Origin: Escherichia phage EcS1
Direction: 5' to 3' (one strand)
Sequence record: NC_055721.1
DNA: 64,000 bases
In this document: piece after piece, positions 58,870-62,444 of the stretch
Numbering within the stretch: the stretch's first letter is position 1
Layout: every line of letters begins with the position of its first letter
The notes under the pieces: model-generated
Database searches by the model: none
What the model was told of the DNA's origin: nothing
What the model saw: only the letters and a program-made list of their open reading frames with translations
Made by a program: the position numbers and the translations under genes

Positions 58870-60243
58870 TTATTTGATTTCTTTAAGGTCTTTGGTGTAT
58901 TCAGTAACGACATCAGTCGTCTTCCAATACTCATGTTCTTCTTTTTTAGCTTTAGCTTCAAGTGCAAGCTTCTTGGCTTCATCAGAAGTAATATGATAGA
59001 TGTTCATTGCAACAAGTTTATCAGCATAATCAGGCCAAGTCTGAGAGACTTCTTCTAACAACTCTTTACGAGTCTTGCCTTGTAATACGATCTTACCATC
59101 AATAACTGTTTTAATGAATTGAGCCTTAGCCAAAGCTAATTTAAAGGCTTCTTCAGTTTCACAGATTTTAAGGTCAATACGTTTTTGAATATAAACTTTA
59201 CGAACATCGACGAATCGACGAATCAAATCAGAAGCACATGTGAATTCTTCTAATTTACCCTTCTCATTAATTACTGTAATGTTCTGGGTACGTCGTTCAA
59301 CAAGCCCAAAGTCTTTCATGATTTTTTCATGTCGTTGTTCTTCATCTTCACTAAGAATATATTCTTTACGAAGTTTAACCTTGAAGCCAAAACCGGTTTT
59401 AGAACAATCATCATCATATGTAATGAAACCAGCATCTTCAAGTGGGTCAAGAATCTTGGTTACATATTTTTCACGGTCCCACTTATATGGAACTTCACTG
59501 ATATAAAGCTGAGTTCGTGAAGTGAATTTATACTTACCACGAATTTCATATTTACCTGGCTCAGTTGTAATAACTTCACCTTCGAATCGTGGGAAAACCA
59601 CATCAGGTTCTTTATTCAACTTACCTTTAAGAGCTAGTTTAGTACACTCAACAACAGATGCTAAACCATGCGGCATGATGTTAGTAGCATACCCTGTAGC
59701 GATACCAGACACACCATTCAAAAGAACAGTTGGAATCACAGGCAAATAAAAACGTGGTGGGATATGTTCTTTATCTTCGTGTTCAGGAGCATATTCAGAG
59801 TCTTTATAAATGTGATAGAAGTTCTCTGAAACTCGCCCGAAAATATAACGTGATGCTGCCGCTTCTTGAACTAATCGAGAACCAAAGTTACCTTCGCCAT
59901 CTAGCATTGGAAGATTATTGTTCCAATCGTTCGCCATTAATGCGCCTGCATCTTGGGCTGAACCTTCGCCATGGTGATAACCCAAGTCGGCTACGCCACC
60001 TGCAATAGAAGCAAGTTTATGGAACTTAGTTTTATTACCACGAGCTAAATCTAATGCACGATGGACCACAAATCGTTGGACTGGTTTAAAGCCATCAATC
60101 ATATTAGGAATGGCCCGGTTTTCAACCGTATACATTGCATAAGCTAAGGCTTCGTTATCGATAATACTTTTTAGACCACGAATATTCAATGAATCTAAAG
60201 TATCTGTTGTTTGCTTAAAAACAATATCTAAAATATCTGCCAT
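58870..60243 (-). CDS. 52: DNA topoisomerase II medium subunit gp52
   Basis: 457 aa (T4 gp52 442); GyrA/ParC-like N-terminal region; position after motA. Confidence 0.8.
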   Translation of the reverse strand: MADILDIVFKQTTDTLDSLNIRGLKSIIDNEALAYAMYTVENRAIPNMIDGFKPVQRFVVHRALDLARGNKTKFHKLASIAGGVADLGYHHGEGSAQDAGALMANDWNNNLPMLDGEGNFGSRLVQEAAASRYIFGRVSENFYHIYKDSEYAPEHEDKEHIPPRFYLPVIPTVLLNGVSGIATGYATNIMPHGLASVVECTKLALKGKLNKEPDVVFPRFEGEVITTEPGKYEIRGKYKFTSRTQLYISEVPYKWDREKYVTKILDPLEDAGFITYDDDCSKTGFGFKVKLRKEYILSEDEEQRHEKIMKDFGLVERRTQNITVINEKGKLEEFTCASDLIRRFVDVRKVYIQKRIDLKICETEEAFKLALAKAQFIKTVIDGKIVLQGKTRKELLEEVSQTWPDYADKLVAMNIYHITSDEAKKLALEAKAKKEEHEYWKTTDVVTEYTKDLKEIK

Positions 60244-60848: not shown

Positions 60849-61310
60849 TTAACTCTGCAGAATAAAGTTAAAATTATCGCCTAACATCAAGTTCATTTCT
60901 GTGATGTTCTGATATTCTTCATTATGGCGACGAGTGAAAGCTAAAGCCAATTGACCTTTGCCAAAACCAGTAGTCAATGGTTTCATTTTTTCGATTGGTA
61001 GATAAAGCACTTCATACAGAACACCATTGTAGTGCATGGTACGGTTTGCTTGGCTACGGTCAGAACGAATGTTACTAAGTACACCACGGAAGCCATGACC
61101 AGAACGTTGACGACCAATTGCAAAACGAGCAGCAACTTGACGATAACCCATAGCGCCTTTAACAACAAAATAAAAACCAGGCTGAGCTAGCACTTCATTA
61201 TCTACATAACCAACTGTTTCGCCATTACGGATAAAACAAACAGTAGTAGCGCCAACATCTTTCAGAATATCACGGGTCATATTTGTACGGGTCATATTTG
61301 TACGGGTCAT
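60849..61310 (-). CDS. ndd: Nucleoid disruption protein Ndd
   Basis: Matches T4 Ndd as recalled (PGFYF, KMKPLTTGFGKGQLALAFTR identical, NFKF.LQ); start at first ATG after GAGGAA RBS, inside a 15-bp tandem repeat. Confidence 0.85.
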   Translation of the reverse strand: MTRTNMTRTNMTRDILKDVGATTVCFIRNGETVGYVDNEVLAQPGFYFVVKGAMGYRQVAARFAIGRQRSGHGFRGVLSNIRSDRSQANRTMHYNGVLYEVLYLPIEKMKPLTTGFGKGQLALAFTRRHNEEYQNITEMNLMLGDNFNFILQS

Positions 61311-61313
61311 ATT
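61272..61313 (-). repeat. In-frame 15-bp tandem repeat (ACGGGTCATATTTGT x2.8) encoding MTRTN-MTRTN-MTRD at the ndd 5' end
   Basis: Two perfect copies plus 12-bp partial copy; each unit carries an ATG on the coding strand. Confidence 0.85.
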
Positions 61314-61452
61314 AATTTCCTCAATAAGTTTAAGTTTTATACTCCACGGACATTTTAACATGTCCGGTTTAAAGCTTACCACCATCCAAAGTACTGTGGA
61401 GCCATTAGTCCAATTAAAAAGAAACCAATCATCATTAAAATACGGTCATAAT

Positions 61453-61641
61453 TCATTTGTTAGCCCCATTCCAGATAACTTCTACGACTGATTTTAAACC
61501 TTCTTTTTGAACAGCATCAACAAGATTGTATGCAACCCAACCTTGGAAAGCCCATGAAGCCAAAATCGCTACAAGTACAAAACCAAAGAACCACGGGAAC
61601 ACTTTAGAAATCCATGAACCTTGACGATTAAGTTTACGCAT
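61453..61641 (-). CDS. Small membrane protein (ndd.x-like)
   Basis: 62-aa ORF with central hydrophobic helix (WFFGFVLVAILASWAF). Confidence 0.35.
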   Translation of the reverse strand: MRKLNRQGSWISKVFPWFFGFVLVAILASWAFQGWVAYNLVDAVQKEGLKSVVEVIWNGANK

Positions 61642-61791
61642 ATTTTCCTCAGAAATAGTAATTAAAAGTTATCCAGAATAAATCCCAACACAACACTGTA
61701 ACAGCAGTTAAAGATAGTGCTAAGCAAACTAAGATGTTTCGAAGCCAAATCTTTAAAGTTTTCATAAGTACTCCCATGTTTGTGTAGGAGT

Positions 61792-61820
61792 ACTATACCA
61801 TGTTAATCAGACGTTGTAAA
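61792..61820 (-). promoter_or_regulatory. Early promoter (-35 TTTACA, 17 bp, -10 TATAGT) overlapping 3' end of denB-like gene
   Basis: Cassette similar to motA promoter; drives tiny TM ORF at ~61649-61765. Confidence 0.45.
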
Positions 61821-62444
61821 CACCTTACATGCACATGAGTCTTCCCAGCCCCAATCAACACGTCCTGAGATATACCAACCAGTGAAATTACTCTTTGCAA
61901 CTAATCCGGCTTCCTTTTTGAATGCCATCTTGTCTGCAAGTACGTAAGGGATAAGCCTGTACGCGCCAGGACCCATCTTCTCAACACGGAATATAATTAT
62001 AACGTCTGATACAGAGAATTCAATGAACGGCCCCAGGTTAATCCCATAACCACCTGGATATCGTCCGAACTGACCAGTTGTACATCCTACCCACTGTTTC
62101 TGACCTATACGTTCAGGGTTCAACATACTTGTCTTAACTTCAACTCGCAATCCAGAATACTTAGGATGAGCCAGCACATCGTATGCATACGTGTAAGGGT
62201 CTTTGAGATTTTCGCCACCATGATTAATGTAGCCATCAAGATGGTCAGCTACATAACGTTCGGCAATGATAGCTGGGATACAACGATCAGTAACTTCTTC
62301 GAGGTCTTGTTCAGGGTCTTGAGACATCGAATAACGAACAGTGTCTTTAATCTTTACTTTATCTTCAGGACTCAAATCCTTGACCGTGAAAGTCTGTGTC
62401 TTCAATTCGCTCAATCGGACCCAGCCCGGATTCGTCAGTTCCAT
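61803..62444 (-). CDS. Hypothetical protein, possibly endonuclease IV (DenB) by synteny; start uncertain
   Basis: Position between ndd and rIIB as T4 denB; N-terminal 80 nt overlap with upstream ORF. Confidence 0.35.
   Translation of the reverse strand: MELTNPGWVRLSELKTQTFTVKDLSPEDKVKIKDTVRYSMSQDPEQDLEEVTDRCIPAIIAERYVADHLDGYINHGGENLKDPYTYAYDVLAHPKYSGLRVEVKTSMLNPERIGQKQWVGCTTGQFGRYPGGYGINLGPFIEFSVSDVIIIFRVEKMGPGAYRLIPYVLADKMAFKKEAGLVAKSNFTGWYISGRVDWGWEDSCACKVFTTSD

Follow-up and report, generated by a model that had tools for sequence, protein, structure and literature searches.

Introduction

Streisinger-type slippage between short direct repeats has classically been studied in genes of the phage T4. 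The locus described here, situated at the 5′ end of the gene ndd of Escherichia phage EcS1, resembles slippage duplications in its perfect head-to-tail copies with a partial copy at the end, in the existence of a shorter form in a relative and in the repeated indels at the same site; it differs from the typical ones in that the repeat includes the start codon, so that each copy adds an ATG, and the duplication event is read from the sequence rather than witnessed. Another known system is that of the SSR contingency loci, such as the tetranucleotide or pentanucleotide tracts in genes of Haemophilus and Neisseria, in which the tracts are far longer than 2.8 copies. A tandem repeat at the 5′ end and a gene product with strong effects on the cell are common to these loci and to EcS1, but the EcS1 unit is a multiple of 3, it is present in 2.8 copies and it does not separate promoter or SD elements. 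With the nested in-frame initiation in T4 genes, where internal starts yield shorter isoforms, the ndd gene of EcS1 shares, finally, the presence of several in-frame AUGs near the 5′ end, although its internal AUGs have no SD and some relatives have Leu at the corresponding codon.

Concerning the gene itself, ndd of T4 is non-essential. The Ndd proteins from T4 and EcS1, ~55% identical to each other, both possess the full-length PF06591 domain and, ahead of Met-Thr and the core, a short leader, and their genes have in common the SD-AUG module and the denB...ndd...gene 52 neighbourhood. Their leaders are different, that of T4 being of 3 residues (MKY), whereas that of EcS1 has 10 and is internally repeated.

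The ndd gene of EcS1 and its surroundings

The window analysed is a stretch of 64,000 nucleotides of the EcS1 genome (NC_055721.1), in which the genes of importance here are as follows:

60849..61310, minus strand: ndd coding sequence, 153 amino acids plus stop, from the first ATG of the repeat (Pfam, annotation identity)
58870-60243, minus strand: gp52-like ORF
61803-62444, minus strand: DenB-like ORF

The 153-residue product matches the family PF06591 (Phage_T4_Ndd) with E = 4.1e-54 and 183 bits versus a cutoff of 25, its residues 11-153 being aligned with the profile positions 4-153 of 154, and it is 100% identical to the annotated 153-residue Ndd of Escherichia phage EcS1 (BBC78338.1 / YP_010090985.1). 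The gene order—a DenB-like endonuclease, small membrane ORFs, ndd, small ORFs and the topoisomerase gene 52—places ndd between the denB-like gene and gene 52, a position common to EcS1, T4 and Winklervirus. EcS1 is the sole member of the genus Kagamiyamavirus, with one genome for both the species and the genus; the nearest genomes in the phage collection are those of Winklervirus (matched were CHI14, CBH8, X20, LC53, Kc304, Virsaitis27, Gravdalen and Vettismorki), exhibiting ~84-85% identity over ndd.

The tandem repeat at the 5′ end of ndd

The array and its units, all read in the sense of the gene, are located as follows:

61272..61313, minus strand: perfect 15-bp tandem repeat, 2.8 copies (TRF and self-match scan)
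61310-61296, minus strand: first full unit, ATGACCCGTACAAAT
61295-61281, minus strand: second full unit, ATGACCCGTACAAAT
61280-61272, minus strand: partial unit, ATGACCCGT

The TRF row for 61272-61313, with period 15, 2.8 copies, 100% matches and a score of 84, is the top one of the 26 rows obtained for the 64-kb window. In our own scan of the window, the array gave a perfect self-match of 27 nt at offset 15, the runner-up being of 14 nt and 100 shuffles yielding a maximum of 14 and a mean of 10.9. The repeat is genuine and greatly exceeds the chance level, and its head-to-tail perfect copies, its terminal partial copy and its 27-nt self-match versus at most 14 nt correspond to a slippage duplication. 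The plus strand of the array reads ACGGGTCATATTTGT ACGGGTCATATTTGT ACGGGTCATATT and the minus strand, i.e. the mRNA sense, AAT-ATGACCCGTACAAAT-ATGACCCGTACAAAT-ATGACCCGT, followed by GAT...; the array is in frame with the ORF and encodes MTRTN-MTRTN-MTRD. An earlier, sequence-only reading of this DNA had described an in-frame 15-bp repeat at the ndd 5′ end, which TRF, the self-match and the minus-strand reading all recover, and the minus-strand sequence likewise bears out its remark that an ATG is supplied by each unit. It had also stated that a change in copy number would alter the N-terminal length of Ndd in 5-codon steps, which is right, the unit being equal to five codons. The IMG/VR copy of the 175,437-bp EcS1 genome carries the identical array; this is, however, the same record and hence not an independent confirmation.

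The idea of iterons was rejected: no other copy of the 15-mer is present in the 64-kb window and, with up to 3 mismatches allowed, 1 extra match was found versus 1.8 expected.

The translation start of ndd

For the question of which AUG starts ndd, the elements are as follows:

61317..61322, minus strand: Shine-Dalgarno sequence GAGGAA, 6 nt 5′ of AUG1 (anti-SD duplex, conservation)
61310-61308, minus strand: first ATG of ndd (AUG1)
61278..61280, minus strand: third ATG, the nearly invariant Met opening the conserved Ndd core, MTR... (family alignment)

The distance of 6 nt between GAGGAA (61322-61317) and the first ATG agrees with the earlier description. Among the three in-frame AUGs of EcS1 ndd, the SD is present at AUG1 only: the duplex with the anti-SD of the 16S rRNA amounts to -6.2 kcal/mol at AUG1 and to +0.6 kcal/mol at AUG2 and AUG3, which are 21 and 36 nt from the SD, respectively, so that neither internal AUG has a ribosome-binding site of its own. 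The module GAGGAAAUUAAU-AUG is invariant in eight genomes—EcS1 and seven Winklervirus—and occurs also in T4, while the metagenomic relatives have it with minor changes. At the position opening the core, Met is found in 97 of the 101 Ndd representatives and Leu in 3. In two relatives with the same SD-AUG1, the core Met codon is replaced by a Leu codon, CTA (P0003) or CTG (P0005); AUG1 must therefore be the start there, and the position of the third ATG is thus internal and not an obligatory start. From these comparisons, the translation of EcS1 ndd is predicted to start at AUG1, the second and third ATGs being internal Met codons, and AUG1 may be regarded as settled for the ndd start in the EcS1 clade.

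It should be pointed out that the original GenBank entry of the Serratia phage CHI14 (MF036690.1; locus L002, 1566-1584) has the ndd CDS beginning at the second ATG (1584), whereas with the same leader the SD-proximal first ATG (1566) is used in Virsaitis27, Kc304, LC53, Vettismorki and Gravdalen, as well as in the RefSeq copy of CHI14. The start in the GenBank entry is probably a mis-call, i.e. an annotation inconsistency.

The N-terminal leader across the Ndd family

The two full repeat units constitute the N-terminal leader of EcS1 Ndd, which is given below together with the N-termini of its homologues:

61281..61310, minus strand: 10-codon N-terminal leader, MTRTN twice, the two full repeat units (Pfam boundary, AlphaFold2, homologues)
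T4-type N-terminus: MKY-MTV
Winklervirus N-terminus: MTNRKA-MTRG
X20 N-terminus: MTN-MTRG
Further family leaders, among others: MTTDSRKY-, MTHQDVRNY-, MTNRNH-, MTKVN-, MRKY-

In the 101 Ndd cluster representatives, the leader preceding the core Met consists of 2-10 residues, the 10 residues of EcS1 being the longest true leader in the family; eight representatives with leaders of ~19 residues were set aside as over-extended ORF calls running through the SD. In the well-called genes of the family, the leader is never of zero length, and ‘MT’ recurs at its beginning. The DNA alignment of EcS1 with the seven Winklervirus shows that the upstream flank of ~60 nt, through GAGGAAATTAAY-ATGAC, varies hardly or not at all, that the same holds for the downstream part from ATGACCCGTG... 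onward, and that the segment between these flanks exists in three lengths of 3, 6 and 10 codons; the Winklervirus relatives thus keep the flanks but are without the repeat of EcS1. The comparison with the ndd 5′ ends of relatives, proposed in the sequence-only reading, has accordingly revealed a length-variable leader evolving by indels. Since the length of the leader in the relatives varies by indels, mutation and drift fit better than a programmed switch.

Two relatives are of special value with regard to the origin of the array. The metagenomic relative P0015 (L015 1501-1527) has ATGACTCGT-CAATTT-ATGACTCGT at its start region, i.e. the codons ATG ACT CGT CAA TTT ATG ACT CGT GGT, encoding MTRQF-MTRGD. 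It exhibits the same 15-nt period as EcS1, with a direct repeat of 9-10 bp in ~1.6 copies, and its architecture corresponds, at the level of sequence, to the one-unit-shorter state expected as the precursor form of the EcS1 array. The phage X20 (L003 1563-1580), on the other hand, contains AATATGACT-AATATGACC, a two-copy repeat with a period of 9 nt that also includes the start codon. The repeats of X20 and P0015 suggest that duplication of the start region is recurrent in the ndd family, and the leaders beginning with MT would fit older, decayed duplications of this kind, although the lineages are not independent of each other. Both the shorter state and the other indels seen in relatives at the same site are in line with slippage.

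Concerning the protein structure, a sequence search of the PDB found no solved relative of Ndd. The AlphaFold2 model of EcS1 Ndd, built from an alignment of 36 sequences, has a mean pLDDT of 77.5 and a pTM of 0.75; residues 1-6 remain under a pLDDT of 50 and residues 1-10 average 53, confident structure beginning from about residues 11-13. Taken with the Pfam boundary, the model indicates that the two full repeat units form a flexible tail which is not part of the Ndd fold.

In the same model, a pLDDT below 50 was observed also for residues 111-119 and 123-132, i.e. inside KMKPLTTGFGKGQLALAFT (residues 108-132, ~60915-60989, minus strand), the stretch with the highest conservation in the family, which is largely invariant in the 36 sequences. 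Being invariant yet not confidently folded in the model, this stretch may serve as a motif for interaction with DNA or with a protein of the host.

Origin of the repeat and alternative explanations

There is a high probability that the array is an ordinary recent slippage duplication at an indel-prone, unstructured leader translated from AUG1, and that it is probably near-neutral. Slipped-strand mispairing in the course of replication or recombination would have added one 15-bp unit in frame, starting from a likely precursor AAT-ATGACCCGT-ACA-AAT-ATGACCCGT with a 12-bp direct repeat at 15-bp spacing, and the product would consist of two full units and one partial. The duplication would be recent, since its copies are perfectly identical, and it would be lodged in a short leader that is outside the conserved fold and has drifted, in both length and sequence, among the members of the family. 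Initiation at AUG1 would then yield the 153-residue Ndd with the 10-residue leader MTRTN-MTRTN, and a unit might perhaps be lost or regained at a modestly raised rate without any regulatory switching. We infer both slippage as the mechanism and the neutrality of the duplication.

The sequence-only reading had taken the repeat for a possible phase-variable expression switch, in which slippage would also alter the RBS-to-ATG context. The latter part fails: because the array starts at AUG1 and extends 3′ of it, the arrangement GAGGAA-N6-AUG1 is fixed and remains untouched by the gain or loss of a unit, which would only move the downstream SD-less AUGs closer to the SD or farther from it. The switch itself is unsupported, since a 15-nt unit never causes a frameshift and thus offers no ON/OFF mechanism. 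In the folding of mRNAs with 0-5 leader units, for which a 5′ leader of 100 nt and a short one were used in turn, no trend of SD or AUG1 accessibility with copy number was seen, the probability of being unpaired ranging from 0.56 to 0.58 (long leader) and from 0.69 to 0.73 (short leader) for the SD and from 0.21 to 0.33 for AUG1. Contingency loci toggle by a frameshift or by the spacing of promoter or SD elements, neither of which is provided by a 15-nt unit in an array running from AUG1, and they have long homogeneous tracts, typically of at least 5-6 units, against the 2.8 copies observed here.

Among the alternatives to be weighed, the one closest to a switch assumes that frequent gain and loss of 15-bp units create a subpopulation of Ndd leader lengths as bet-hedging on the amount, stability or toxicity of Ndd. 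Perfect repeats are indeed slippage-prone in principle, the length of the leader has changed repeatedly in related phages, and codons just past the start are generally known to be able to affect expression; we nevertheless consider this quite unlikely, there being just 2.8 copies of a long unit, with all changes in frame, an unaffected SD-AUG1 context and a predicted TIR accessibility constant over 0-5 units. Moreover, it is not readily apparent why a gene that is non-essential in T4 should be under strong selection for a switch. The searches for copy-number variants point in the same direction, although they carry little weight, since EcS1 alone represents its species and genus: the IMG/VR and JGI metagenome contigs, searched with two exact patterns each, yielded only the EcS1 record, and no exact Ndd with 0, 1, 3 or 4 leader units was present among 15 billion proteins. 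The use of AUG1, AUG2 and AUG3 as stacked starts, giving nested Ndd isoforms of 153, 148 and 143 residues, would profit from the A/U-rich, weakly structured region in which the three in-frame AUGs are found, from the Met occupying the third position in nearly all homologues and from the original CHI14 annotation. It is made highly improbable by the distance of AUG2 and AUG3 from the SD and their unfavourable anti-SD duplexes, by the CTA and CTG codons that replace the ‘conserved Met’ in relatives with the same SD-AUG1, and by the SD-AUG1 module kept from T4 to EcS1.

The remaining two explanations concern the repeat as such. That it is a sequencing or assembly artefact, the true genome having fewer units, could be thought of in view of the single genome record, of which the IMG/VR copy is a duplicate; the 42-bp array is, however, shorter than any modern read, so that its copy number requires no guess by an assembler, the copies keep the frame and leave the ORF uninterrupted, and the independent relative P0015 has a precursor-like architecture, all of which leaves this explanation with a minimal probability. 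Equally remote is a cis-acting element overlapping the ndd start, in the form of iteron-like protein-binding sites or a regulatory RNA motif. Cooperative binding of a protein to three phased copies of a 15-mer would in principle be conceivable, but the predicted folding of the TIR is unchanged by the repeat and there are relatives without the repeat yet with the same flanks; Rfam, run over 61100-61700, returned only a chance match to U6 (E = 0.66).

Some points speak against the preferred explanation, i.e. a near-neutral slippage duplication. A leader is kept in every member of the family and may have a function, e.g. in translation efficiency or protein stability; the gain of five residues might not be strictly neutral, and the leader of EcS1, the longest one seen, could reflect selection rather than drift. 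A more far-reaching view, in which the SD-proximal ndd leader is a mutational hot spot with recurrent duplications and deletions, and the EcS1 leader is polymorphic in length within lysates and tunes the dose or kinetics of a host-lethal early protein to different hosts, is improbable. It should be noted that ndd has already been annotated and that a short in-frame tandem duplication is a textbook event; the specific repeat and the family-wide variable leader seem not to have been described before but are unsurprising. The feature, at first sight a contingency switch on a gene lethal to the host, is best seen as an in-frame slippage duplication of the ordinary kind, in a leader that seems dispensable. 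It represents a clean example of N-terminal extension by duplication of the start region with the SD-AUG module fixed, and the array may be used as a PCR-sized marker for slippage rates in a T4-like phage.

Elements upstream of ndd

The region preceding the repeat contains the following elements:

61335..61367, minus strand: conserved 5′ leader elements upstream of the repeat (RNA fold, comparison)
61367-61345, minus strand: inverted repeat CCGGACAU-N6-AUGUCCG(U)G (RNA fold)
61345-61335, minus strand: GGAGUAUAAAA, RegB/S1-like target directly 3′ of the hairpin (consensus match)
61357-61352, minus strand: -10-like TAAAAT, in the hairpin loop and 3′ arm (sequence reading)
61375-61370, minus strand: GCTTTA, MotA-box-like, 12 nt upstream of TAAAAT (sequence reading)

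The hairpin in the ndd leader of EcS1 has a folding energy of -11.7 kcal/mol (z = -3.4), and hairpins are found at the equivalent place in T4 (-15.3 kcal/mol), Winklervirus, P0003 and P0010; besides the window, the hairpin is recorded at L008 3560-3600 (minus strand), L010 1436-1475 and L001 1501-1545. The stem sequences differ among T4, EcS1/Winklervirus and the metagenomic relatives by compensatory changes. The consensus of the RegB/S1 target is GGAGRAYARAA (PMC1702504), with which the 11-mer of the ndd leader, composed of GGAG and an A-rich part, agrees in 10 of 11 positions. RegB could process the transcript at GGAGUAUAAAA, a candidate site lying ~20 nt before the SD of ndd.

As far as a promoter is concerned, Winklervirus has TGCTTTA-12-TACAAT/TATAAT at the same place, and (T)GCTTTA at 12 nt from a -10-like hexamer is shared by EcS1, Winklervirus and P0013, while P0003 and P0010 possess there TTTACA-17-TATAAT of the early type instead. 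The motif GCTTTA-12-TAAAAT resembles a middle (MotA-box) promoter of T4, the -10 element of which would apparently lie inside the inverted repeat. A generic scan for sigma-70 promoters and terminators gave nothing above the shuffle expectation at the ndd leader.

Immediately upstream, a small hydrophobic ORF of 26 codons, MNYDRILMMIGFFLIGLMAPQYFGWW, occupies 61376-61456 on the minus strand and is missing there in Winklervirus. The start codon of this ORF and the stop codon of the preceding one (61453-61641, minus strand) share an ATGA overlap, and the small ORF resembles the small membrane-peptide ORFs of the ndd.1-ndd.6 cluster of T4. On a larger scale, a megablast search with the part 40000-64000 of the window found three phage records at least 99% identical over some short part of the query, which might represent a mobile or recently exchanged segment.
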